Source: a phage. From it: a DNA stretch of 64,000 bases. The stretch's first letter is position 1. Every line of letters begins with the position of its first letter. The DNA lies in the sequence record OZ346201.1, one strand, 5' to 3'. The translations under genes and the position numbers were made by a program. Positions 1,714 through 55,285 of this stretch are shown here, in pieces. The notes under the pieces are model-generated. The model was not told the DNA's origin, ran no database searches, and saw only the letters and a list, made by a program, of their open reading frames with translations.

Positions 1714-2145
1714 ATGGGGAATAAGATGCCACAGGAAGAAATGATTTCCTACGAAATCATCTACGAGCCTGACACTAAAGATGCTCACGGTGAGTGGATG
1801 AGTAAAGACACCATCAAAAAGGCTAAAGATAACTGGGACGCAGCATACGCTGCAGGCCTAGTTTCTGAAAACCTTTTCCACTTGACCTCTACAGATGCTT
1901 TCACTATTGAAAAGACGTGGATTCAAGAAGAGTTTGATGTTGTAGTAATTGGCACTGAGCAGGTCATCAAGGCTGGCTCTTGGGTTGCTAAAGTTAAATA
2001 CAATAATCCTGAATTATGGGAAGCTAAGAAGGCTGGCATTGTTGGTGGCCTAAGCATTCAGGCAACAGGTAATGTTGATGAAGAAACTGGTGAAATTACC
2101 AACGTAAACTTCGGGATCAGTGTTGTAGAAGAGGGCAATGAATAA
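1714..2145 (+). CDS. head morphogenesis protein, possible prohead protease
   Basis: ORF-track frame 1570..2145 overlaps the portal 3' end; an in-frame ATG at 1714/1726 after GGGGAA is the more plausible start. Position between portal and scaffold matches a protease slot. No catalytic motif recognised. Confidence 0.35.
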   Translation: MGNKMPQEEMISYEIIYEPDTKDAHGEWMSKDTIKKAKDNWDAAYAAGLVSENLFHLTSTDAFTIEKTWIQEEFDVVVIGTEQVIKAGSWVAKVKYNNPELWEAKKAGIVGGLSIQATGNVDEETGEITNVNFGISVVEEGNE

Positions 2146-3122
2146 TGTCTGAAAAAACGATTACTATTAAAGAGAAGGGGATTGCCCTGTGCCATAAGGC
2201 GCAAGGCTATAGCGCTAACAACAGACCTGTATCTCTTTTGATGAAGAGTGATCTTAAGCCTGAGCAGTTAACAGACGATATTGTTAAGGCACTTCGCCAA
2301 GTTACTGTGGAGCTTAGCTTTGAAGAATACCTGCGTCGTTTCTTCGATATGTGGTATGATGATGCTAAAGCACTTGCACACATGCTTGGTTTTGAGATTG
2401 AAGAGGAGGCTTGGGCTAAAGAGCATCCTGATTGGGAATGGGCGCAAGCTGACGCAGAGTCTTGTATTGCATGGCTGGAAGAGCGTTGTGATAACGTGAC
2501 CATTCATAAGGCTGCAAAAGAAGGCAAGCAGCTTAGTGTGGTAGATCAGTACAGCCTGTTAAAAACACAACAGATTTTTGAACAAGTAACCGCTGATCTC
2601 TTCGATAAAGAAGGGAACCTGATCAAGGCGGTACAGGAACCTGCTGAGGTGGATAAAACTACCGAGGTGGATGATGTTGCAAAATCCGCAAATACCGAGG
2701 AGAATCCGGTGGACGTAACCAAAACTAAAGAGTATCTGGATCTGCTGAAGCAAGTAGAAGAGCTGAAAGCAACCCAGAGTAAAGCTGAAGAAATCATCAA
2801 GGCCCAGGTTGAAGTTGAAAAAGCTAAAATGCTGACTAAGGCTCAAGCTTTAAGCTTTGTTGGTGAAGAAGATCACGCAACCCTGGTTGACTTCATGCTG
2901 GAAAAAGCTAACGAACCTATCGTAGCTATGCTGGAGAAAGCTCAAGCAAAAATTGAAGAGCTGGAAGCAGAGGTGCATAAAACTAAAGAAGAGTTTGCCA
3001 CCACTGAACATGGTAATGATGGCGAACCTGTTGTGGATGATATTGCGAAATCCGCAGAAGAAATTCTTGCTGAAAACGTTGCAAAAGCACTTGCTCGTGC
3101 ACGTGCAGAATCTAACAAATAA
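2145..3122 (+). CDS. scaffolding protein (putative)
   Basis: 325 aa, acidic, Ala/Glu/Lys-rich with long predicted coiled-coil segments (e.g. EKAQAKIEELEAEVHKTKEE); start overlaps the upstream stop (TAATG); lies between portal and capsid. Confidence 0.5.
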   Translation: MSEKTITIKEKGIALCHKAQGYSANNRPVSLLMKSDLKPEQLTDDIVKALRQVTVELSFEEYLRRFFDMWYDDAKALAHMLGFEIEEEAWAKEHPDWEWAQADAESCIAWLEERCDNVTIHKAAKEGKQLSVVDQYSLLKTQQIFEQVTADLFDKEGNLIKAVQEPAEVDKTTEVDDVAKSANTEENPVDVTKTKEYLDLLKQVEELKATQSKAEEIIKAQVEVEKAKMLTKAQALSFVGEEDHATLVDFMLEKANEPIVAMLEKAQAKIEELEAEVHKTKEEFATTEHGNDGEPVVDDIAKSAEEILAENVAKALARARAESNK

Positions 3123-3142
3123 GACATTAACGGGGGAAATAA

Positions 3143-3532
3143 ATGATTACCGCTCAATATTCTGATATCGTGCTCGGCAAAGTTGATTCTAGCGATGCTG
3201 GCTACAATTTTAAAGAGATGGAAATTACACTGACAAAGCACCACCATGCGGGTACTGTTGTAACAAAAACTGGCACTATCGCTAACGATGATGGCTCAGA
3301 CGTTTATGGTGTTCTTGTAGACCGAGCTTTGGTAAAAGATGCAGGAAAAGTTCATCTTGCTGAGCCTCTGCAAACAGGTCAGAAATATAAACTAGTTGTC
3401 GCAGTTCACGGTGTTACCTTTGCAAAAGATAAGCTGCTGGGGTCTAACGGTGAAGCAGCTAAGCAGGATGTTCTTGAAAAGCTGGAAGCTCTGGGTAACA
3501 AAGTTCACGTCCAGACTCTTGGTGAAGAGTAA
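3143..3532 (+). CDS. head decoration protein (lambda gpD-like)
   Basis: 129 aa, RBS GGGGGAA; immediately upstream of the major capsid gene, as in the lambda D-E arrangement. Confidence 0.45.
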   Translation: MITAQYSDIVLGKVDSSDAGYNFKEMEITLTKHHHAGTVVTKTGTIANDDGSDVYGVLVDRALVKDAGKVHLAEPLQTGQKYKLVVAVHGVTFAKDKLLGSNGEAAKQDVLEKLEALGNKVHVQTLGEE

Positions 3533-12921: not shown

Positions 12922-12933
12922 TAAACTGTGCAG

Positions 12934-41900: not shown

Positions 41901-44547
41901 ATCCATGTCCATGCAAATTCCGGTAACAAACGGATACAAACGTGTTGTGATGATCATTAAGTGCGACCTGATAGGTAAACAAGTTCTTGCAGAAAACGGG
42001 ACATCCACACATCCTTTTGAGATCGCTCTGCACTATCAGTTTGCTGACTCACCTTTTGCAGGGGATAAGAGAATATCTGATACAGACGCACAGCGTTGTA
42101 AGAAAGTATTGTTGGGTGCAGGTTGGTGGTGGTATGAGTTTGATTTAACAGACAAATTCACCGACACGTCTAAAGTTGTAACAGGACTTCGTCTAGACCT
42201 TGGCGAGAACATGCACAAAGCTGTTTGTGATGGCACCTATGGTGACCCTACAATATACCTAAAATATGTTTCTTTTGAGCATCCGGAAGATGTTGTCTAC
42301 GGTCCAAAACTGAGATTGTTTGGCAGCTGGATTGCAAAAGATAGGGTAGGCATGGGTAAGAAGGTAAGAGGGCTCTTGGTTGATGCAGGAACAGAAGACA
42401 TGCTGGTTAATGCAGTGTGGCCTGAATTACCTGGGACTCAGTGGGACAACTCAGCCAAATCTATAAACTGGTTTAACATTCATAGGGCCATGTGGACCAC
42501 TAACTGCTACTTGTGGAGAGAGCTTAACGATCAGGCCTTTGGATTCAGCGATGGTAGAAGGATGGCGATCATTTGCTGGACAACACTGCAAAGATGTTAT
42601 GACCATGACTATGAGATTGGGGGCAGGGCATGGAAAAATATCAGGGATAGAATCATAACCAATTTTGCAGACGACAACGGTGGTGGAGCACATAACTTTG
42701 GCACAAGCCGACTCATCCATTTGAACGGATCCTCAGCCTACAAGAAAGAAGGTTACTCTGGGTCTATGATCGAGTGGGGTCTGGTGAAAGATGCTCGCGT
42801 ATTGATGGGCCAGCAACTTGCTGCCGCAATAGGTCCCAGCGCAGTGCAGTCGGTTAAACCAGCGTGGTTCGATATTCCATTGTGGTCACCCGGAACACCG
42901 GGAACTGCTGCAATCAACCCTACCACTGGGGATCTAGAAATCTCCTGGGAGGACTTGAAGCAGGTCGGTGGTTGGGACAAAACAGGGTACCAGGTTCAGT
43001 GGTGGAGAGCTGATGGATCTTTAGCTGCTGATGAGTTTGTTAAGGACAATTTCTACACTATGTCCTCTGCAAAAGCACAGCAATTATTTGGTCAGGCAAC
43101 TCCGTCAACGATCACCATGTCTATGTGCTGTAAAGACAACAGGACTGGAGCTTTGGGGCCAAGGGTTGCTAAAGTTTTCTCAGGTATTAAATGGAATCTA
43201 CCTGTCCAAAGTATTTCATGGAAGCAAATAGGTGATAACAAGCTGCTGGTTACCCCTGCCTGTCAGTTCAACGCAACTCTTAACGTTGATCCTGCTGTTG
43301 CGGCAAACTCAGCTAAAGCTTCTGACTTCTCTGTGTCTAACACTGCTATGGCAGATGTGAGGAAGATTGACACGCTGAACGCCAGAATTACCTGTAAAAA
43401 CACTTATGGCACATTCCAGATCATCAACAACTTCACAGATGCTGATTCTAAGGTAGTGAGGACAGCAAGCCAGACTTTGAGTTTAGGAACTCTGGCCTAT
43501 GCGGCCCTAATCACTGAACAGTCGGCAACACTCCAAGGAGGTGGTGTAGGCAAGTCCATTACAACACCTGTGTGGAAGCCAAATGAGTGGGTTGTGTTTG
43601 ATTTGACTGTGGACTTCTCCAGCGATAATAACTGGACATGGGTAAGGAATTGTTTGTCACAGTTGATGGGCGGTCCAAGCTCCGTTAGTGATAGTCACGA
43701 CTCTACTGACCCGAGTGTGTTCCAGGTAGGTAAAACTCACCCAGAGACTGGAGAAACGTTGCCTGACAGGAAGTATGCTTTGGTTTGCATCTCTTACGGG
43801 AAGGCAGATGTCACCTTCTCAGGGACACACACTTATAACGGAACCTACAACTTCTCAAGGAAGTATAGTCTCAAAGCAGGGAACATTATAGACGAGGTTG
43901 GTGTGCTGTATAATCCGGGCAACGGCATAGGGATTGTTGGTGGTAAACTGCAGATGCAGGAACCTTCTATTACCCCTTCCAACGTATCCGGGATTAGAAA
44001 GACTTGGGAAAGTAGTAATACCAACATTGCAACAGTGGATGCCACCACAGGACTGGTAACATTTAAAGCTACTGGGAATGTCACCATAAAGTTTGTAGTT
44101 ACAGATGATGCAGGGCGCAAAACGTCTTCAACATCTTTTACTGTCAAACAGATGGCACCACAGTGGAGAATGTGGATAGGTACAGCAACAAACGGGGCAT
44201 ACCCTAATCCGGCAGGTACTTCTGGTATGAAGACTTTCTCTACAAGCAAACCGATGGAGTACGGCAGCGGTCCTAAGGTAGGGCAGATGGTGTACTTTGG
44301 TGCGTATATTCCTGAAATTATAGGGCTTCCGAGAAGTCAGCTTCAGTTGCTGTTTGGGGCTGGTGTTGACGATCTTGCCACTTTCGGGTATAGCGACAAC
44401 ATCGAGGCTGCAAGGAGTTCAGGATGGGTAGGGTTCAGAATGGAGTCTGGAAAGGAAGGCAGGATTCTAGGGACAGCCTCTATAGGTGTTATGTTCCCTG
44501 GTGACCAGCAGTATCGTCTAGAAGCCTACGCAACCTTTTCTCGTTAA
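38911..44547 (+). CDS. giant virion-associated multidomain protein (Ig-like and FN3-like domains)
   Basis: 1878 aa, RBS GGAGAA; C-terminal Big_2-like segment (SNVSGIRKTWESSNTNIATVDATTGLVTFKATGNVTIKFVVTDDAGRKTSSTSFTV); FN3-like region (PGTPGTAAINPTTGDLEISWEDL...GYQVQWW); last gene of the late block. Confidence 0.55.
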   Translation: MLPIPLLKLGRHFLDKRGGIKELAVLSYPIDNSDGTSNTVSYVNSLAILFDDGQLNITGYNKFGECRTGDRNPINYPSETAWNVDHVWRADRAFVIRTFDNQFFYIGCTAGLIGSTAAGGNDVCVNEWTPLPEQIVKGLHLDTHPERLIEVMGGINNTVWVIAEAEGTGILKLYGSGNNTYGSLHVDKNQHATPVKIGETSENPETGPWKNPSINCEVHDNSVIFGGPRGFWIAGYDFLRNNSRNDLVWPPVQITRNDLRGIPADEEWKGFMCGPNGAIIATQRMHKPNDQQLVNVFYGQDVWGDDTWRSLNITYTHEVIMARGYGTSGIFFNNGTKQYRGFSRNLCNDIGAQSANNSPRANFIHYQALATAKYVEQRLPVSWTESVYFQGIHREGFLGTFTVVNGKLWWSGIPRGSFAGSNNLFGGRLNSQGFTEIPENWYKNVPVDSWGIEDIFDVNGVSNVSNIYIGDTVKMKLKPQPEGATFIIDKIELVNAAGTVVTDANYQFSTNWNHGGANEVVVTQYNRNINRRGLYSIKITYHDKHGTGRTYTTRTLNWNTIVPAYPSNGKWHTVGRNKQFHVNDTVYFGLNGTQPAVEGDTSYMVRLHRMDAGSVTYDVTQEIYDQRRATYDNIVKTQALWEFNPNGKGGKMLQVNEQNGTSLTVHEHPDPWPDPGKPRPGARTLKIVSHDAGYFGIRWEATVRYVDGTTNNIGITLGGTSEDNSLKIAYTPRGISIDSMDVVRNGYGDVNVKVTLGEHLGGERIIMYTFDHDPRTNGTYANQAWSYLINAPEPNTKEFYYGMKRDVCKKTGTHDWIAICVKDERTAWDEPVNRWFIGIPTRSDKYVAEYIVCMGGTNLNMCWNEDVNKYSDYDYMRDYSCNLWFNQTTGYPPRQARVNPAIFTDTQVFLTKQANEVQTFKNKYAPNKWFYNCYGAFFWGPGELPGGGSCLNEATYASDYIMGQVKKYKIIPGPETLGNAVDPYIIMTALRSNMDGTSMSMQIPVTNGYKRVVMIIKCDLIGKQVLAENGTSTHPFEIALHYQFADSPFAGDKRISDTDAQRCKKVLLGAGWWWYEFDLTDKFTDTSKVVTGLRLDLGENMHKAVCDGTYGDPTIYLKYVSFEHPEDVVYGPKLRLFGSWIAKDRVGMGKKVRGLLVDAGTEDMLVNAVWPELPGTQWDNSAKSINWFNIHRAMWTTNCYLWRELNDQAFGFSDGRRMAIICWTTLQRCYDHDYEIGGRAWKNIRDRIITNFADDNGGGAHNFGTSRLIHLNGSSAYKKEGYSGSMIEWGLVKDARVLMGQQLAAAIGPSAVQSVKPAWFDIPLWSPGTPGTAAINPTTGDLEISWEDLKQVGGWDKTGYQVQWWRADGSLAADEFVKDNFYTMSSAKAQQLFGQATPSTITMSMCCKDNRTGALGPRVAKVFSGIKWNLPVQSISWKQIGDNKLLVTPACQFNATLNVDPAVAANSAKASDFSVSNTAMADVRKIDTLNARITCKNTYGTFQIINNFTDADSKVVRTASQTLSLGTLAYAALITEQSATLQGGGVGKSITTPVWKPNEWVVFDLTVDFSSDNNWTWVRNCLSQLMGGPSSVSDSHDSTDPSVFQVGKTHPETGETLPDRKYALVCISYGKADVTFSGTHTYNGTYNFSRKYSLKAGNIIDEVGVLYNPGNGIGIVGGKLQMQEPSITPSNVSGIRKTWESSNTNIATVDATTGLVTFKATGNVTIKFVVTDDAGRKTSSTSFTVKQMAPQWRMWIGTATNGAYPNPAGTSGMKTFSTSKPMEYGSGPKVGQMVYFGAYIPEIIGLPRSQLQLLFGAGVDDLATFGYSDNIEAARSSGWVGFRMESGKEGRILGTASIGVMFPGDQQYRLEAYATFSR

Positions 44548-44561
44548 CAAGGGGGTAAATA

Positions 44562-46968: not shown

Positions 46969-47535
46969 TTATTCAAACTGCAATAGTAAGTCCACCACCG
47001 CGCTAGGTCTGTCAACAAATTCCCCAGGTCCACATGCCCACAGAGGGTATCCGTCTACATACCGCCAAATCCAACCTGCAGTGTGGAGTTCGAGCAGGGC
47101 AGTACCGTCCTTACTGTCAACCACTCTTTCCCACAGTGTTGGGCAGCGAAGCTTGAGAATCGGATCACCTCCCTTATACCCGTCCATGTAGATACCCATT
47201 GCAAAGTTCAGCATCATCTTTTTGTGCACTGATCTCTTACTGAGGGTGCTCATCACTTCCTCTTTGTGAATGTTTGTAAGCTTCTCTTTGGCTACCCGCA
47301 GATCGTTGCAACCATTGTTCAGCAGATCTTCCAGACACTTGATCCGGAGGTCGTGAATGTCTTTGTCGTGTACCGTTGGCACAGGGTCGTAGCGGTATAG
47401 CACTGTTGATACAAGGTTGCTCGGGTGTGGGTCTGACAGCAACCCATAACCCCAATACTCTTCTGTATCTGAAAGGACAAGACACCCAATGTCTCTGTCA
47501 AGCTTTCCTGTGTTGTAAGCCACATTGACCGCCAT
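46969..47535 (-). CDS. hypothetical protein
   Basis: 188-aa ORF, no motif recognised. Confidence 0.4.
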   Translation of the reverse strand: MAVNVAYNTGKLDRDIGCLVLSDTEEYWGYGLLSDPHPSNLVSTVLYRYDPVPTVHDKDIHDLRIKCLEDLLNNGCNDLRVAKEKLTNIHKEEVMSTLSKRSVHKKMMLNFAMGIYMDGYKGGDPILKLRCPTLWERVVDSKDGTALLELHTAGWIWRYVDGYPLWACGPGEFVDRPSAVVDLLLQFE

Positions 47536-47537
47536 GA

Positions 47538-47783
47538 CTATAGCTCCACTAGCAAAGTGCTTTCAAAGTGCCGTTCATGCAGACCGTTGTAAGGGACCAC
47601 TTCCACAACACCATCACGGACATACGGGGCCATCATAGTGGTATAATCTCCAAACGGGTTGGTATTGTCACTAACCACAACCACCTTCTGCCCTTCCTTG
47701 GCAGAGTGCCAAATAGATCTACACTTCATCAGGTGTTCGAGAGCTCCAGGTAAAATTTTGTTACGTTCTTTACGGGTCTTCAT
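47538..47783 (-). CDS. hypothetical protein
   Basis: 81-aa ORF, tightly packed with neighbours. Confidence 0.35.
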   Translation of the reverse strand: MKTRKERNKILPGALEHLMKCRSIWHSAKEGQKVVVVSDNTNPFGDYTTMMAPYVRDGVVEVVPYNGLHERHFESTLLVEL

Positions 47784-48229
47784 AACAGATATAGCTCCTT
47801 ATGAAAGTGGTCTTTTAATTTCTCACTGAGAAACTTCTTGATACCTTCCTCTAAAGTGTTTTCGATGTAGTCCAGCTTAACTGCTTCGATGGACATATCA
47901 TAGATTGCCAGCTCTAAGCTGTCAAGTCCCATCATAGCATGAACCATAAGATTTTCATCTTCAGATACATTCAGGGGACTTCCTATAACATCTGGAGGCA
48001 GAATAGTTTCCCAATTATTCTGGGTGGTAGTTCTCCCGCCATCTACTTTACGGCGCAGTTCGAATGTGTTCTTAGTGTAGAACACTTCATAAGAAACGAT
48101 ACGACTGTCACTCTCATAATAAACGAAGTTCAGGTAGGAGCCTAGCCGCAGTCGGCAAACTTCCACCCCAAACCATTGTTTCTTATAAGAATTCAGGCTA
48201 ATGCTGTCGCATTCACGTTTGCTCAACAC
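47780..48229 (-). CDS. hypothetical protein
   Basis: 149-aa ORF. Confidence 0.4.
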   Translation of the reverse strand: MLSKRECDSISLNSYKKQWFGVEVCRLRLGSYLNFVYYESDSRIVSYEVFYTKNTFELRRKVDGGRTTTQNNWETILPPDVIGSPLNVSEDENLMVHAMMGLDSLELAIYDMSIEAVKLDYIENTLEEGIKKFLSEKLKDHFHKELYLL

Positions 48230-48245
48230 GGCTATCTCCTTTTTG

Positions 48246-48480
48246 TTAATCTTCGTAAATCAGGATTTCTGCTTTAGGTTTTCGTGCTTTCAGGTCCAGC
48301 TCTATCCAGTGCACCATAGCTGTTTCAAGAAAAACAGCTTGGATGCATCCGTCCTCAGCGTGCCCCCACCAACATAACGAGATCTTCACCTTCGTCATCT
48401 GCATCACGAACATAAAGAATCTCTCCAGATTCGAAGTCTTTCACAACCTGATTGCTAGATAATTTTCGAATTTTTGCCAT
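48246..48480 (-). pseudogene. frameshifted fourth copy of the 87-aa tandem paralogue family
   Basis: ATG after GAGGG gives 41 aa (MAKIRKLSSNQVVKDFESGEILYVRDADDEGEDLVMLVGAR*); the family's C-terminal signature (...ELDLKARKPKAEILIYED) continues in another frame after a GGGGG run. Confidence 0.45.
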
Positions 48481-48481
48481 A

Positions 48482-48745
48482 TCAGAAACCCTCTAAAAAG
48501 CTCTTGTAGAAAACAATCTCAGTATCCACACCAGTCACAATCTTGTCGTTCCTGATTTCATCGGTAAGATAGGTGTCAAAACGCAGAACCTGTGTGGTGT
48601 TGTCACACATCCACTCAGCTGTGACCATTGCGAAAATCTTAGCATCTTCATTATCTGGTGTGAATGTTACCACCTCACCGCACTTAAACTTTTCGATAGG
48701 CTGAGTGTTAGCTTTCGGTTCTGCGATAGTGATTTTTGTGGTCAT
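48482..48745 (-). CDS. small protein, tandem paralogue 3 of 4
   Basis: 87 aa; shares G(T/E)VV.F..D...D......V...FD....LP....VTE.D..I.ILGE pattern; start overlaps upstream stop (TAATG). Confidence 0.5.
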   Translation of the reverse strand: MTTKITIAEPKANTQPIEKFKCGEVVTFTPDNEDAKIFAMVTAEWMCDNTTQVLRFDTYLTDEIRNDKIVTGVDTEIVFYKSFLEGF

Positions 48746-49008
48746 TATTCTCCTCCTTCTTTTGAATAGCTTGTCTCTCCAAGGATGGTAATTTTGGTGT
48801 CAAGCTCTGTAACTTTCATGTTTGGCGGCAGATCGTACAACTCATTATTTTCTAAATCGAACCCCCACACACAATGTTCTCCTGTTTTGACAATCATAAC
48901 TATGTTTTGAATGCCGTCTCCGTCGCAACTTACCACGGTCCCACACGGAAAACTGTCTGCACGCTTTTTGTTCTTCACCTTAGAATTGAATACAATGCTG
49001 GTAGCCAT
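48745..49008 (-). CDS. small protein, tandem paralogue 2 of 4
   Basis: 87 aa, same family; TAATG overlap with the upstream gene. Confidence 0.5.
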   Translation of the reverse strand: MATSIVFNSKVKNKKRADSFPCGTVVSCDGDGIQNIVMIVKTGEHCVWGFDLENNELYDLPPNMKVTELDTKITILGETSYSKEGGE

Positions 49009-49271
49009 TATTGTTCCTCCACCATAACTTCGCCAAGAATTTCTATGCAGGCATCCATTTCTGTAACAACCAAACTGTGAGGTAGTTCTACAAACACCTT
49101 TCTGAACAGGTCAAATACCCCAACATATATGTTTGCAGGATGTGATTTTACAACAAGTGCTGTATTCACATCCCCAAGTTCATCAACAAACATCACCACA
49201 GTGCCCGGAGCTACTGAGGACAGATACTTCTTAGTTTTACGGTTTGATGCAAATTTTAACTCTGTTGCCAT
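49008..49271 (-). CDS. small protein, tandem paralogue 1 of 4
   Basis: 87 aa, RBS GAGAGGAGG; same family. Confidence 0.5.
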   Translation of the reverse strand: MATELKFASNRKTKKYLSSVAPGTVVMFVDELGDVNTALVVKSHPANIYVGVFDLFRKVFVELPHSLVVTEMDACIEILGEVMVEEQ

Positions 49272-49286
49272 AAATAACCTCCTCTC

Positions 49287-50747
49287 TTACTTAGCGTACT
49301 CGATTAATTCCACAGTTTTCCCAAAGCTCGGGATATAATTTTTATTATACCCCTCAGTGAGGACCCATAGAGTATCGTACTTTTTCCACTTGTTGTCAAC
49401 AACCTTTTGTTCAAAGTTATGCTCAAAGTATAGGTCGGTCAGGACGATGACATCTTTTGCATTAGGTATGTTGGCATCCAGATACTCGAACACGCAAGCA
49501 GCTGTTGTGCCCCATGTTGAGTGGACCTCATAGTTGATCATCTCGTCTATGTTGCCGCGAGTGTATACTTTAACCTCTCCAACCTCAGTTGACCAACAGA
49601 ACATTGTAACCTTAAACTCTTTATACAGATTGCACAATCCGGTGATTTCATTGAACATTTTCTTTAAAGTTCTTTGAGAGATCGAGCCAGAAACGTCTAA
49701 AGCCACCACAATATCTATAGTGTTTTCCGGATTACGACCAGGAACAATAACGTGCTGGTTCTTGTTTATAGCCCCAACTTTTCGCATTGTGCTGGTCAAA
49801 GACCCAGATCGGCGACCAGGTTTTCTGTAGGTCAGTTCGGCCTTTCTTTTAGACAACATACGTTGCTTAATGATGTCTATATAGTTGATTACAGGCTTAC
49901 CTCTGTTCTTGACAAACTCACGCACCGCCTCAGGGCAACGGCCTCCGGACGCTTGCATTGCTGCCTCCAGCATATCACCAGAGTCCTGCATGGCCTGATC
50001 TTTATCAGATTGGCTGATTACAGGTTGTGGCTGATCATACCCCATAGCCTTTCCAAGATTATCACTGGTGCCACCGTTCCCACTCATGTGATCATCGGTT
50101 TGTCGCTTATCACTTTGAGAGTTCTCACCTTTACCGTTCTTACTTTTACCGTTATTCTGATCTCTTTGCTTATCAAGAACTGCATAAACGTTCTCAGCAA
50201 TCCATCCATGAAACTTCATGTCGCAGTAGCAGCTGGCTAAGAAGCCAAAAGGCTTACCTTTCATGAACGTAGTGCTTTTCCCCTTCGGGAAGAAAACACA
50301 AGGAGGTTTGCTAAAGTCAACCACAAGGCCTGTGTTGATAACGTGATCACAAGCAATATTGAACAGTTCCGGCTCAAAGCTTTTACCACGGACTAGGTGA
50401 TCACAGATAATATGCCCCACCTCATGTGACAGAAGGAAGGCCACCTCTTTCACAGATTTTGGGGAATAGAAAACTTCAGCCATCTCAAACTGCTCGTCAG
50501 TTAGAGAAGCCTTAAGAATAGCCTTGCGTTCATCAGCCAATCCCATAATGAACTCAGGACTGTAATAGATGCGTTTATGGTCGGTTGCCATGGTGGAGCA
50601 CCATGTGTGGTTTTCTACGAACTGCAACCCTGACAGTAGTGTGCCATAAAACGGCAGCTTTTCAAGGAGATACATACGTGCAGCCTGCAACATTCTCAGG
50701 GCATCATCTTTCTGCGAGGCAATGATTTCTGAACTTCTGCTATCCAT
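49287..50747 (-). CDS. metallopeptidase-like / von Willebrand factor A domain protein
   Basis: About 486 aa from the second ATG (MDSRSSE...) after GGAG; the track ATG at 50768 lies in a hairpin loop. N-terminal HExxH (SHEVGHIICDH); C-terminal VWA with MIDAS motif (VVALDVSGSIS). Confidence 0.6.
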   Translation of the reverse strand: MDSRSSEIIASQKDDALRMLQAARMYLLEKLPFYGTLLSGLQFVENHTWCSTMATDHKRIYYSPEFIMGLADERKAILKASLTDEQFEMAEVFYSPKSVKEVAFLLSHEVGHIICDHLVRGKSFEPELFNIACDHVINTGLVVDFSKPPCVFFPKGKSTTFMKGKPFGFLASCYCDMKFHGWIAENVYAVLDKQRDQNNGKSKNGKGENSQSDKRQTDDHMSGNGGTSDNLGKAMGYDQPQPVISQSDKDQAMQDSGDMLEAAMQASGGRCPEAVREFVKNRGKPVINYIDIIKQRMLSKRKAELTYRKPGRRSGSLTSTMRKVGAINKNQHVIVPGRNPENTIDIVVALDVSGSISQRTLKKMFNEITGLCNLYKEFKVTMFCWSTEVGEVKVYTRGNIDEMINYEVHSTWGTTAACVFEYLDANIPNAKDVIVLTDLYFEHNFEQKVVDNKWKKYDTLWVLTEGYNKNYIPSFGKTVELIEYAK

Positions 50748-50756
50748 TAAAACTCC

Positions 50757-50775
50757 AGAAGGGGCCATTGGCCCC
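50757..50775 (-). promoter_or_regulatory. intergenic hairpin (attenuator or terminator candidate)
   Basis: AGGGGCC-AAT-GGCCCCT between the stop of the 50781..51575 gene and the VWA gene start. Confidence 0.3.
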
Positions 50776-50780
50776 TGTCA

Positions 50781-51575
50781 TTATTTAACGTGTTTGAAAA
50801 TACCTGCCAACTCGGTCATTGTCATGCGGGTGGTCTTCATAAGATCTGTCATAGCTTTCTCCATAATTGGAGATACTACCATAAAGTTTCCTTTAGTGAA
50901 ACCTTTATTCCAGTCGGTCACCAACAGGGGTTTAAGTCCAGCTCCAAGACGTTCACCAGTTAAAGCACAGCATTTGCGAATATACGAACTCTTAAATTGG
51001 CTGAACGACAGATCAACTTTCATACCTACATCGTAGAACGTTTGACAATAGAAAGTGTAAGCTTTGGCAATCTCAACATCATCAGGTAGTGCAGGAACCT
51101 CTTCTGTAAGCTCCTCTTCGACCTCCTGAGTCTCTTTTTCCTCTTCATGCACCTGTTGCGTCATTTCTTCAATCTCTTCTGTGATAGGCTCGTTTACAAT
51201 GTCGGAAATGTGCTTCTTGGGTGCACGATAAGTAACTTTAGACATCGGTAGCATATCTTCCTCCTCTTCTTCGTCAAAGAGTGCTAGTTTATCCTCTTCC
51301 GTTCCATATTGCAAGATGAAATCTTCAAAAGTATAATCACCTTTCAATTTCTCCATACGCTCTTCGCTCAGGTGGAGCATCATCTGCTGGACAATTTTTC
51401 GATCAGTTTCGTCTTTAATCAAGACTGCAGTCTTTTTATCTACCAGACAGTCCTTTAGAGAGTTGCATCTCAATCCCACCACACAACAGTTATCAACCGC
51501 ATAAGGACCTTCATCATCTATCCGCTCCAGAGATGGGTAGAAAGGATTCCCCAGCCCGTTTTCATCTGTGTGCAT
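50781..51575 (-). CDS. hypothetical protein with Cys-rich N-terminal domain and acidic C-terminal region
   Basis: 264 aa; first 23 codons lie in the left palindrome arm; internal LPMSKVTYRA identical at 27 nt to the start of the 52791 gene; preceded internally by GAGGAGG. Confidence 0.45.
   Translation of the reverse strand: MHTDENGLGNPFYPSLERIDDEGPYAVDNCCVVGLRCNSLKDCLVDKKTAVLIKDETDRKIVQQMMLHLSEERMEKLKGDYTFEDFILQYGTEEDKLALFDEEEEEDMLPMSKVTYRAPKKHISDIVNEPITEEIEEMTQQVHEEEKETQEVEEELTEEVPALPDDVEIAKAYTFYCQTFYDVGMKVDLSFSQFKSSYIRKCCALTGERLGAGLKPLLVTDWNKGFTKGNFMVVSPIMEKAMTDLMKTTRMTMTELAGIFKHVK
51222..51248 (-). repeat. 27-bp inverted-repeat copy 1 (CCGATGTCTAAAGTTACTTATCGTGCA)
   Basis: Exact 27-nt identity, in inverse orientation, with 52788..52814. 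Confidence 0.6.
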
Positions 51576-51760
51576 GTCAAAAGGTATAAGGGTATAGTCG
51601 CATACTCCATCTCCTAAAAGTTTTTTACCAAATATTTGGTAAAAAACTTTTAGGAGATGGAGTATGCGACTATACCCTTATACCTTTTGACATGCACACA
51701 GATGAAAACGGGCTGGGGAATCCTTTCTACCCATCTCTGGAGCGGATAGATGATGAAGGT
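51507..51760. repeat. 254-bp perfect palindrome at the divergent junction
   Basis: Arms about 127 bp, centre ...TTACCAAATATTTGGTAA... at 51633/51634; the ORF-track N-terminus of the leftward gene equals the mini-ORF I translated from the right arm (MHTDENGLGNPFYPSLERIDDEG). Confidence 0.7.
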
Positions 51761-52502
51761 TATTGAGCGTAGATTGGTATCTGGGTCTGATAAGTGGACA
51801 TATTTAGATAATGAAGGACACACCTATTCCAATGGGTATGTCGATATAAAAGTAGAATACGCGGTATCATACCGCCGGAGCGGTTCTGTAACTTTCAACT
51901 TCTCTGGAGGTTTTCGATCTCTGGCTACCTCACCTTTTGTTTCCTCAGAGGAGAAGTATGAGCTGCCATTTCTTTGGATGATGGCTAACGCGACAGGAAA
52001 AACCCCCGTTAGCATCCGAGTAAAATACAACTACAACGGATCTAGTAAGATCTATGCCGAAAGTGTCTCAGCAAGTTTTTATTTTGTGATGGGGGATGGA
52101 ATCCTCAAACATATAAAGATGTGCGATATGCATGATGTTATAAATGAAGTGACTGATAAGAATGTTCTAGTGAAAGACCTCAACAATTTTTATACACCCG
52201 GAGACTATTACGTCAGCCGTCCACTGTGCATCTTTAATGCCGCACACCCTCTAGGTGAGTATTTGATCGCCAATAGCGATATTGCCAATAACCGCTTCGA
52301 GGTAGCAAGAGTTCAGAATGAGGTATTGACATCTTGCAAGAGCGGTGATAAGTTTACCGAAGAAGAGATGGGTGTTTTAGAAATGATGGGATATAAGTGT
52401 AGCCTTTGGGTAGATGAGGTGTTCAATGATTGCATCTATGGACAGGATATTTACCCATTAAAGAAGTATACTGATTCCAGTTTAATTTACGCGGAGATTT
52501 GA
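51750..52502 (+). CDS. hypothetical protein
   Basis: 250 aa; ATG lies in the last 11 nt of the right palindrome arm, RBS GGAGCGG. Confidence 0.45.
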   Translation: MMKVIERRLVSGSDKWTYLDNEGHTYSNGYVDIKVEYAVSYRRSGSVTFNFSGGFRSLATSPFVSSEEKYELPFLWMMANATGKTPVSIRVKYNYNGSSKIYAESVSASFYFVMGDGILKHIKMCDMHDVINEVTDKNVLVKDLNNFYTPGDYYVSRPLCIFNAAHPLGEYLIANSDIANNRFEVARVQNEVLTSCKSGDKFTEEEMGVLEMMGYKCSLWVDEVFNDCIYGQDIYPLKKYTDSSLIYAEI

Positions 52503-52504
52503 CT

Positions 52505-52777
52505 ATGATGAAGTCATGTGGTAGTGTATATTATGTTGGTGAGAATGTTCAGGCAGATAGTGTGTGGAAATCCATTAAGTCCACCACCGATGATGCCTTT
52601 CTGAGCGGGTTATGTTTTCCCAGCCCAGGGGACACTCTCCCTTACCCTGGAGATTTTGTTGTCAACAAGATGGACGGTTATACCGTGTGCCTGATGGTTG
52701 AAAAAATCTTTTTAGACACTAGACACAATCACCGTCTTGTGTTAAAATTTCAAGAATGTAAAATGACAATTGCCTAA
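52505..52777 (+). CDS. hypothetical protein
   Basis: Track ORF starts at a TTG at 52499; ATG 52505 after GGAGA is preferred. Confidence 0.35.
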   Translation: MMKSCGSVYYVGENVQADSVWKSIKSTTDDAFLSGLCFPSPGDTLPYPGDFVVNKMDGYTVCLMVEKIFLDTRHNHRLVLKFQECKMTIA

Positions 52778-52787
52778 GGAGACCTTG

Positions 52788-52814
52788 CCGATGTCTAAAG
52801 TTACTTATCGTGCA
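52788..52814 (+). repeat. 27-bp inverted-repeat copy 2 (CCGATGTCTAAAGTTACTTATCGTGCA)
   Basis: Exact match to the reverse complement of 51222..51248; contains the ATG and first 8 codons of the 52791 gene. Confidence 0.6.
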
Positions 52815-53147
52815 GCTATTTACTGCAATGAACACCCAATCAATAATGATGGTCACTGCCTTTTTAAAGAAAATCAATTGGGCTGTATTGTCCTCCCTGA
52901 TGAAGGGGAAGGTTATCTGATTGCGTTGACAGGGTTTGAACCTGAAGCTCTGGAAGCCAATCTTGACTACCTGGTAGAGGAGGGTGCTGCAGACCTGGTT
53001 GCCAATGGCCTCTCCATAAGCCTTGACGAAGTGGAGCGCTTCATGGGCAATTACCGTGTAGTGCGTGAGTTTACTATCGAGGTGGAAACTCCCGAGTGGG
53101 GTAGCCATGAAACTAATGCCGAAGAAAAAGAAGAGGAGGTAGAATAA
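52791..53147 (+). CDS. small acidic protein
   Basis: Track ORF starts at a TTG at 52770; ATG 52791 after AAGGAG is preferred. Strongly acidic (C-terminal EEKEEEVE). Confidence 0.45.
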   Translation: MSKVTYRAAIYCNEHPINNDGHCLFKENQLGCIVLPDEGEGYLIALTGFEPEALEANLDYLVEEGAADLVANGLSISLDEVERFMGNYRVVREFTIEVETPEWGSHETNAEEKEEEVE

Positions 53148-53831: not shown

Positions 53832-54101
53832 ATGTTATACCAGCAATATGAACTTCGTGCAGAAAAAGAGTTAAATTTTGACAAAGATATTCACAGATAT
53901 TATTATGGGAAAGTTAGAGGGCAAGCAAGAAAGTGTACTCCAACACTCTTTTATGCCAGCAGACGACTAGCGCCAGAAGAGGCAACAGCAGAAAGGGTTG
54001 CGTACAACTGGAGAGTCACGTATGATATTGACAGATTCGATGTGATATCTGTTTTGGAAAACTTTGAAAACACTTACACACAAGTAGAGGACTTTTACTA
54101 A
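53832..54101 (+). CDS. hypothetical protein
   Basis: 89 aa, RBS AAGGAG. Confidence 0.4.
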   Translation: MLYQQYELRAEKELNFDKDIHRYYYGKVRGQARKCTPTLFYASRRLAPEEATAERVAYNWRVTYDIDRFDVISVLENFENTYTQVEDFY

Positions 54102-55285
54102 TGTCAAGAAACGTATTCGAAAGTGGTCAAATCACTGTCCGTGAGTTGCCAGCTATTATTCAGTTTGCCCAACGTCATAGCCGATCTGTCCTAATTTTGG
54201 GACCAATGGGTGTGGGTAAAAGCCAGGTGATGAAGCAGATCGCTGATAATATGTTCGGTGAGCGAGATGACAACCTTGTTGACGTGCGACTGTCAGATAA
54301 AGATCCTGCCGACTTATCTGGGCTACCTATCCCTGTAGAAGCGGATGGAACTACACGTACAGTGTTTGCAATTCCAGAATTTTGGCCTGCGGATCCTGAC
54401 TGGAGCGGAATTATCTTTCTGGATGAGCTCACTCATGCAGATAACTACCTGCAAAAGGTTGCAATGCAAATTATGCTTGACCACAAGTGCGGCACCTATG
54501 CATTCCCTAAGGGTTCTGTTTTTGTGGCTGCGGGTAACCGTTCTACAGATGGTGCGGTTCTTTCGGCGCTCGAAGCCCCTCTGGCTAACCGTTTTATCAT
54601 TGTAGAGGTTACAAGCAATGCAGAGGTGTTTATTGAGGACTACGCATTCCTCAACGGGGTTCACTCCTCTGTAATTGGGTATCTGAAAAGAGTTCCATCA
54701 GCTATTGATAATTATGAGGCTATGGCTGAGATTAATTGTCCATCTTTTGCCACACCACGATCTTGGGTTGCTGCATCTGACATCTTGCACGATTTTGACA
54801 GCGGTATTATTTCTGACGCTATGGCCCGTGTTCTTCTACAAGGTGCTATTGGTCACACTGCAGCGGTAGAGATCTGGACTTACCACACCAAGAAACGTAA
54901 TTTACCGGAAATCGGTCGGATTATGGCAGGTGGCTGCAAAGAATACGTAGGTCCTAAGCAGCCAGACATTTTGTGGATTCTTGGATCTGAAGGTTGTATC
55001 GCTATTCGCAATATGATGGAAAATGCAAGTATCTCCGACGAAGATCTTGTTAGCTGTGTGGCAAACTTCCTCGATTTCCTTTGGGAAAATTTCAAGGACG
55101 AGAACCGAGATTTTGTATTCTCAGTCTTTATGGCGATGATGAAACCTAACGCCTTAGGAAATGCCTTGCTTATCGGTAAAGGGCGTGACAAGATTGTTGC
55201 TCAGTTGATCAAAGCATATCCAAACCTGATGAAGATTGTAAAAGAGTTTGGTGAAGAGTTTAGCGCCATTTTGGCTAAAGCTTAA
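54101..55285 (+). CDS. MoxR-like AAA+ ATPase
   Basis: 394 aa; Walker A GPMGVGKS, Walker B IIFLDELTHA, and VAAGNRSTDG...ALEAPLANRFIIVEV typical of MoxR/AAA_5-type ATPases. Confidence 0.65.
   Translation: MSRNVFESGQITVRELPAIIQFAQRHSRSVLILGPMGVGKSQVMKQIADNMFGERDDNLVDVRLSDKDPADLSGLPIPVEADGTTRTVFAIPEFWPADPDWSGIIFLDELTHADNYLQKVAMQIMLDHKCGTYAFPKGSVFVAAGNRSTDGAVLSALEAPLANRFIIVEVTSNAEVFIEDYAFLNGVHSSVIGYLKRVPSAIDNYEAMAEINCPSFATPRSWVAASDILHDFDSGIISDAMARVLLQGAIGHTAAVEIWTYHTKKRNLPEIGRIMAGGCKEYVGPKQPDILWILGSEGCIAIRNMMENASISDEDLVSCVANFLDFLWENFKDENRDFVFSVFMAMMKPNALGNALLIGKGRDKIVAQLIKAYPNLMKIVKEFGEEFSAILAKA

Follow-up and report, generated by a model that had tools for sequence, protein, structure and literature searches.

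Four small acidic tandem paralogues, the first with a predicted SH3/Tudor-like fold, beside the VWA gene of an rV5-like coliphage

We analysed a 64,000-nucleotide (nt) stretch of phage DNA (sequence record OZ346201.1; hereafter the window) and found on its minus strand, at 48246-49271, four small genes in tandem, c1 to c4, the last of which is broken by a frameshift. The surrounding region, 47500-51600, matched 119 GenBank records, all of them from rV5-like phages (Vequintavirus), and was 99.7% identical to phages pangalan, ime and rV5_ev146 and 99.6% identical to Murica; judged by its sequence, the window belongs to an rV5-like coliphage (Vequintavirus) of the Murica type. Genes c1 (49008..49271), c2 (48745..49008) and c3 (48482..48745) each encode 87 amino acids (aa). 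TAATG overlaps join the stop codon of c1 to the start of c2 and that of c2 to the start of c3, as had been described in an earlier account made from the letters of the window (the sequence-only reading), while the c3/c4 junction reads TGAtATG, so that these two genes are adjacent without overlap. A GGAGG-like ribosome-binding site stands ahead of every start from c1 to c4. All family members are acidic (isoelectric point 4.2-5.0) and 77-88 aa long.

As read in the window, c4 begins with a fragment of 41 aa that ends at a TGA (48355..48480) and whose first 39 residues are residues 1-39 of rV5 gp016. The C-terminal remainder follows in a shifted frame (48246..48362; 38 codons and a stop), and the open reading frame (ORF) listing of the window contains a second-frame ORF of 55 aa on the minus strand ending at 48246. 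The frame is lost at a GGGGG run (48363..48367; CCCCC on the plus strand), which is GGGG in relatives. The sequence-only reading had claimed that one G too many breaks the last copy and that its removal would restore 77 aa; deleting one G indeed gave a 77-aa protein identical to rV5 gp016. Two details of that account needed amending: the run, sought at 48355-48365, was confirmed but lies at 48363-48367, and the copy length of 87 aa holds for c1-c3, the fourth copy being 77 aa.

The four genes are annotated in pangalan and Murica as hypothetical proteins of 87, 87, 87 and 77 aa. Their proteins matched PHROG families over the full length (E 1e-41 to 1e-62): c1 and c2 fall with rV5 gp014 into phrog_10698, c3 (rV5 gp015) into phrog_12861 and c4 (rV5 gp016) into phrog_12046. 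The pVOG assignment of c1 and c2, VOG5597, is also present in the pangalan annotation. c1 and c2 are ~39% identical, and their Smith-Waterman score of 103 (shuffle mean 23.7, z=19) was reached by 0/1000 shuffles. Pairwise scores involving c3 and c4 were marginal (z 1.3-4.7). When a profile of c1, c2 and gp014 was compared with c3, hhalign returned a probability of 91% (E 1.1e-6) over 79 collinear columns. An extended profile, enlarged by two distant members (P0043 and P0044) from a hidden Markov model (HMM) search of 1.84 billion representative proteins, matched the c4 profile with a probability of 90.7% (E 1.3e-6) over 68 collinear columns.

Controls agreed with this result. The single c4 sequence scored 35.1, compared with a maximum of 19.7 among 150 other window ORFs of 60-130 aa and of 18.7 among 100 shuffles of c4 itself (mean 9.8, standard deviation 1.9), which places c4 13 standard deviations above the mean. 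In a local hmmsearch of 457 ORFs with the profile of c1, c2, gp014 and c3, gp016 (c4) was found at E 1.1e-4; the next matches were the 41-aa c4 fragment of the window type (0.092) and an unrelated ORF (0.23). Furthermore, the profile of a sister clade that carries a single copy could be connected with each of the three groups (97%, 81%, and P=0.0034 with 64 collinear columns). Because the profile-profile comparisons were significant despite the marginal pairwise scores, we accept the paralogy of c3 and c4, and the full-length profile similarity indicates that c1/c2/gp014, c3 and c4 form one superfamily of true tandem paralogues. The sequence-only reading had proposed profile searches with the intact copies as a check on its tandem array of four; these searches, the ORFs and the Smith-Waterman comparison of c1 with c2 bear it out.

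The array lies directly downstream of a metallopeptidase/VWA gene in the same operon (49287..50768, minus strand), as had been noted before. Its product carries a DUF2201_N metallopeptidase domain with an HExxH motif and a DUF2201 VWA-like domain (Pfam E 4.4e-28 and 6.1e-11), and its stop codon is 15 nt ahead of the c1 start. In relatives this gene is annotated as a coding sequence (CDS) of 486 aa. The gene that precedes it is the Srd-like 'anti-sigma factor' of rV5, and the gene downstream of the array (47780..48229, minus strand; phrog_6790) is the homologue of rV5 gp017. An AAA ATPase of 394 aa, labelled MoxR in some relatives, is encoded on the opposite strand ~3.3 kb off (54101-55285); it matched AAA models weakly, below every Pfam cut-off.

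The annotation of the VWA gene varies among records. In rV5 itself (NC_011041.1, our L003, 2757-4218) it is split into the overlapping CDS gp012 and gp013, with the RefSeq name 'HNH endonuclease' for gp012, whereas other relatives have a single 486-aa CDS. The same label is found on PHROG 1314 and 3118, and other records use 'anti-sigma factor' or 'DNA repair ATPase'. The split suggests a frameshift or an error in the reference, together with a propagated mis-annotation.

We then compared the position of the array across related phages, ordered by the identity of their VWA protein to that of the window. Seunavirus and Mydovirus (46-48%) have no copy, and their phrog_6790 gene follows the VWA gene directly. 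An uncultured sister clade (62-63%; >50 protein clusters, on contigs mostly of 125-145 kb) has one copy of 82-88 aa. Phages of the rV5 type (~95% in L017, a three-gene contig) have three, namely gp014, gp015 (c3) and gp016 (c4). Murica-type phages, the window and a divergent lineage represented by contig L014 (82%) have all four, c1-c4. Since the phrog_6790 gene directly adjoins the VWA gene in Seunavirus and Mydovirus, the array is an insertion between the VWA gene and the gp017 homologue. Four genes were present in about 44 of the 118 GenBank relatives and three in the others. The rV5-like phages have alternative first cassettes, c1 plus c2 or gp014. We considered whether gp014 could be a fusion of c1 and c2 formed by unequal crossing-over; gp014 is ~40% identical to each, and the idea was excluded by its equal distance from both in either half (18/44 identities to c1 versus 15/42 to c2, and 16/41 versus 17/41). 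In the single-copy clade (L009 and L010), a TnpB or IS605 OrfB-like gene with the PF07282 Cas12f1-like_TNB domain (2119-3258) interrupts the divergent promoter region, where it separates the gene-10-like gene from the Srd-like one.

The family is confined to rV5-like phages. Beyond P0043 and P0044, the HMM search of the 1.84 billion representatives returned no true members and one spurious repeat protein, and a tblastn search of 50,697 phage records found matches in Vequintavirus only. The sequence-only reading had proposed a search for similar arrays beside VWA/MoxR genes of other phages. Small genes do occur next to VWA genes there (phrog_10489 proteins, KB57_221, N4 gp21 and an 84-aa ORF of L012), but they had no profile similarity to the family.

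Next, we examined selection on the paralogues. Among relatives, the ratio of non-synonymous to synonymous substitution rates (dN/dS) was 0.01-0.04 for c3 and 0.04-0.08 for c4, with 21-40 synonymous and 3-12 non-synonymous differences, which points to strong purifying selection on both. Because dN/dS is low and synonymous changes are many, both are functional, tightly constrained genes, and c4 does work in other phages. Between the window and L014, protein identity was 57% for c1, 64% for c2, 98% for c3 and 95% for c4, compared with 82% for the flanking VWA protein and 61% for gp017; few genes of the region are as well conserved as c3 and c4. Positive or diversifying selection was considered and rejected: dN/dS was at most 0.19 wherever measurable, and c1 and c2 diverge quickly, about as fast as the neighbouring gp017 and not beyond it. 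The idea of a diversifying family, raised in the sequence-only reading, is therefore not favoured.

In the same comparison, c3 and c4 (48482-48745 and 48246-48480) formed an island of conservation with a synonymous divergence (dS) of ~0.62, while VWA, c2 and gp017 were synonymously saturated and c1 was near saturation (dS ~1.6). Since synonymous divergence is low inside this segment and saturated in its flanks, a recent recombinational exchange of c3-c4 between lineages is suggested.

A structural model of c1, built from a 12-sequence alignment, reached a predicted local distance difference test score (pLDDT) of 82.6 and a predicted template modelling score (pTM) of 0.69, and contained seven beta-strands. 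Its core is a strongly bent, five-stranded antiparallel barrel that superposes on known SH3-like members, and the model predicts c1 to be a small beta-barrel of the SH3/Tudor type. The fold resembles Tudor domains (SMN, TDRD3), the C-terminal domain of uL2, KOW/Spt5 and domain I of EF-P, as well as the RNA-polymerase-binding Tudor-like domains of UvrD/PcrA and also CarD. The phage proteins differ from these barrels in that they stand alone and have an additional strand at the N-terminus and a long one at the C-terminus, and the likeness is one of fold only, without sequence similarity. No Tudor, KOW or SH3 family of Pfam matched the array members at E up to 1-10, and a profile search of the PDB gave no sequence match (best E 0.72). 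The c1 family is thus analogous in fold to the Tudor/KOW/SH3 families, or very remotely related to them, and not a member of them. The c4 model was of low confidence, and its fold-search matches are meaningless. N4 gp21 resembled c1 weakly in fold (Foldseek E 0.02), with an hhalign probability of 0.5% against the family. A DUF1883 label on one third-party annotation entry in nr (P0065) could not be reproduced, as searches with an E limit of 10 gave no Pfam match, PF08980 included, for P0065 or for seven further members.

The frameshift in c4 could reflect the biology of this phage or the way in which its sequence was obtained. Pangalan and Murica have GGGG at the run in the alignment. The c4 gene matched 117 GenBank relatives, and among the 60 of these that were listed, all 60 had an intact gene of 234 nt against the 235 nt of the query; both records inspected annotate it as a 77-aa CDS. 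A 71-nt probe carrying G5, centred on the run, matched 0/77 records at >=99%. The intact 77-aa protein was present in several clusters and on many contigs, and the 55-aa frameshift product (P0039) was recorded on one contig only, Logan ERR3378739_12037. This contig is ~99.7% identical to the window across 47000-50250 only; in the flanks, some 250-nt windows had up to 47-59 mismatches (<=81% identity), and it is distinct from the window because its flanks diverge. Pattern scans of IMG/VR and of JGI metagenomes for the G-run region of c4 found nothing. The G5 allele is therefore rare, being absent from the GenBank relatives checked and common to one other public assembly.

No general homopolymer error was seen in the window. 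Over 50 kb of comparison with pangalan, homopolymer indels of 1 nt occur at three isolated sites; ~155 G4/C4 runs show no other change, the c4 indel is the only one that breaks an ORF, and every large ORF (up to 1878 aa) is intact. Of the other two indels, both intergenic, the additional G at 44547-44551 is a variant that is common in nature (18 GenBank records were identical over 71 nt), and the one at 12928-12933 falls downstream of the tape-measure gene, in a polymorphic terminator region. Because a second, distinct assembly shares G5 and the window shows no general homopolymer problem, we consider the extra G to be probably a real, rare loss-of-function (null) allele. A sequencing or assembly error, with an intact 77-aa c4 and G4 in the real phage, is the strongest competing explanation and a possible one. 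It would fit a 1-nt insertion at a homopolymer site that is missing from the 60 listed and the 77 probe-tested GenBank relatives, in a gene strongly conserved elsewhere. Logan and ENA assemblies are also rich in frameshifted versions of all four genes. One of these, P0034 (3 contigs), is a form of c2 truncated exactly at an in-frame G5 run (48862-48866), and public c4 forms P0040 and P0041 are broken elsewhere, at a non-homopolymer site. Against an error stand the G5 in the second assembly, whose flanks are 3-19% different, the single ORF-breaking indel among so many G4/C4 runs, the intact large ORFs, and the common natural occurrence of one of the two other +G differences. Of the causes listed in the sequence-only reading, a real null allele is thus somewhat favoured over a sequencing error, and slippage is set aside, as discussed below.

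A second irregularity of the window bears on the same question. At 51498-51769, ~3.1 kb from the c4 run, lies a palindrome with no spacer and arms of 136 nt (132/136 complementary), a fold-back structure typical of chimeric assemblies. Compared with Murica, 410 bp are missing at this site, comprising the 5' ends of the Srd-like gene 11 and the fucosyltransferase-like gene 10 with their bidirectional sigma70 promoter region; an inverted copy of the adjacent 128 nt replaces the lost stretch and is joined at a 10-nt microhomology (TGATGAAGGT). Murica and contig L007 are normal across the junction, and GenBank relatives span ~300 nt more. The palindrome is either a template-switch rearrangement that removed the promoter of the array operon or a chimeric artefact (a fold-back from multiple displacement amplification or long reads). 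An Rfam and promoter/terminator scan of the region found nothing beyond chance, apart from sub-threshold 'miRNA' matches at 51498-51769 that are merely the hairpin. Nearby, a perfect 27-nt inverted repeat (51222-51248 and 52788-52814) has one copy in the Srd-like gene and the other in a divergently oriented ORF (52770-53147), and both copies encode PMSKVTYRA.

The position of the array raises another possibility, that the small proteins are dedicated to the DUF2201 VWA protein and the nearby AAA ATPase, as their substrates, adaptors or inhibitors, for example with their acidic C-termini docking on the VWA metal site. Such an arrangement would recall the pairs of MoxR-like AAA and VWA/DUF2201 proteins of the N4 gp24/gp25 type, as the neighbour of the array is a homologue of N4 gp25, and N4 also has small genes near its pair. 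It is consistent with the location of the family in one operon with the VWA gene, which it directly follows at a gap of 12-15 nt on every long contig examined, with an adjacency that spans lineages whose VWA identity is only 62%, and with acidic C-terminal residues in most members. We nevertheless think it unlikely. Seunavirus, Mydovirus, Certrevirus, N4-like and jumbo phages have the VWA gene but lack the family; 1 to 4 copies stand beside a constant single VWA gene; P0043 follows unrelated genes (phrog_420) on a 2.7-kb contig; the single-copy clade ends in YAHR or YARQ, which is not acidic; and the AAA ATPase is divergently transcribed. The co-occurrence expected of an accessory component of MoxR-VWA systems was thus not found, the adjacency being conserved within the rV5-like clade. 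The proposal of the sequence-only reading that the copies are chaperone-like partners of the VWA protein is likewise not favoured, since other genera of Vequintavirinae keep VWA without the family.

Two further explanations are very improbable. Programmed +1 slippage on GGG-G, or a phase-variable G4/G5 switch that tunes the amount of full-length c4, would have in its favour that a shift of the P-site tRNA-Gly from GGG to the overlapping GGG restores the exact wild-type ...LVGHAED... and that the G-runs of c2 and c4 are recurrent indel sites in public assemblies; but the two-frame layout is not conserved in the relatives, the A-site codon after the run is GCA, neither a stop nor rare, no stimulatory element was seen, and five G are too short for efficient transcriptional slippage or high-rate phase variation. 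That c3 and c4 are unrelated small ORFs resembling c1 and c2 by chance, as the weak pairwise scores (c1 vs c3 z=1.4; c1 vs c4 z=1.3), the P=0.015 of the c1/c2/gp014 profile directly against c4 and the separation of c1/c2, c3 and c4 in pVOGs and PHROGs (three families in the latter) might suggest, is hard to reconcile with the end-to-end collinear alignments of the extended profiles (~91% probability), with a c4 score far above its shuffles and every other window ORF, with the single-copy clade as an intermediate sequence matching all three groups, and with the agreement of c1-c4 in length, strand order, position and coupling.

Together, these observations are best explained by a lineage-specific family of acidic SH3/Tudor-like proteins that expanded by tandem duplication, serves as binders early in infection and has a null allele of c4 in this phage, a reading to which we give a probability of roughly 55%. 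The ancestor would have been a single gene flanked by the DUF2201 metallopeptidase/VWA gene and the gp017 homologue, and repeated tandem duplication would have produced the 0, 1, 3 and 4 copies in successively closer relatives. The result would be a tightly packed, translationally coupled array within transcription unit 11-26 of rV5-like phages. This unit of rV5 carries sigma70-type promoters (PMC3606486), and because the array belongs to it, the four genes are presumably expressed early from host-type promoters. Purifying selection would maintain each paralogue, and because each is kept, each would have its own job. Early in infection, the copies may bind or inhibit, in stoichiometric amounts, different macromolecules of the host (or of the phage). 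In the window, the change from G4 to G5 would disable c4, leaving a 41-aa stub that keeps only the first strands of the barrel; c4 would then be a dispensable accessory gene whose loss is natural and rare.

A role of c1-c4 as binders in host takeover is put forward tentatively. We infer it because the SH3-like fold is a generic protein- and nucleic-acid-binding module, because the operon is shared with an Srd-like factor, and because the family has the size, charge, narrow range and variable copy number that such accessory genes typically show. Lytic phages carry arrays of small, acidic, early accessory genes, for example host-takeover and anti-defence clusters. The array resembles these in its small, acidic, packed genes, its sigma70-type unit, its narrow range, its variable copy number among close relatives and the tolerated loss of one member, and thus shows the combination of small size, acidity, early operon and variable presence known from such proteins. 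It differs in that its members match none of the described takeover or anti-defence proteins, and in that selection on c3 and c4 is purifying and not diversifying. No study mentioning rV5 gp014-gp016 or the c1-c4 genes was found in the literature.

Several observations weigh against the explanation as a whole. Pfam, NCBIfam and PADLOC gave no match for family members, and a Foldseek search of BFVD with the c1 model returned many phage proteins of 70-90 aa, all uncharacterised. Frameshifted forms of gp014/c1, c2 and c3 are also present in public assemblies, so that lesions or errors are common in these genes. Finally, the palindromic junction is suspicious and lowers trust in the assembly.

The proteins themselves are not new: c1-c4 are annotated as 'hypothetical protein' or 'unknown function' in more than 100 GenBank genomes, and databases hold the same proteins as three unrelated families. 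What is new is that three orphan families (gp014, gp015 and gp016) are united as paralogues of one SH3-like family, for which a fold is predicted and a 0-1-3-4 copy-number history is traced; new as well is the finding that the c4 lesion is missing from the GenBank relatives checked but recurs in one other public assembly. The finding is incremental and describes fairly ordinary evolution of phage accessory genes, not a new kind of system. Phages of the rV5-like group count among the coliphages isolated most frequently and have uses in biocontrol and therapy, yet nearly all of their early region is labelled 'hypothetical'. The united family offers a compact, testable set of targets, and the BASEL collection includes phages with three of the genes (for example AlexBoehm and JeffSchatz) and with four (for example CarlMeissner and DrSchubert). 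If the c4 frameshift is real, it provides a natural knockout; should it be an error, a single base of the record has to be corrected. More speculatively, and in our view improbably, the array might form a toolkit whose modules are SH3/Tudor-like inhibitors, with a different host factor or defence protein as the target of each paralogue; given the Srd-like neighbour, RNA-polymerase- or RNase-associated proteins could be among the targets. If this were true, the alternative first cassettes and natural null alleles would shape the host range of rV5-like therapeutic phages.

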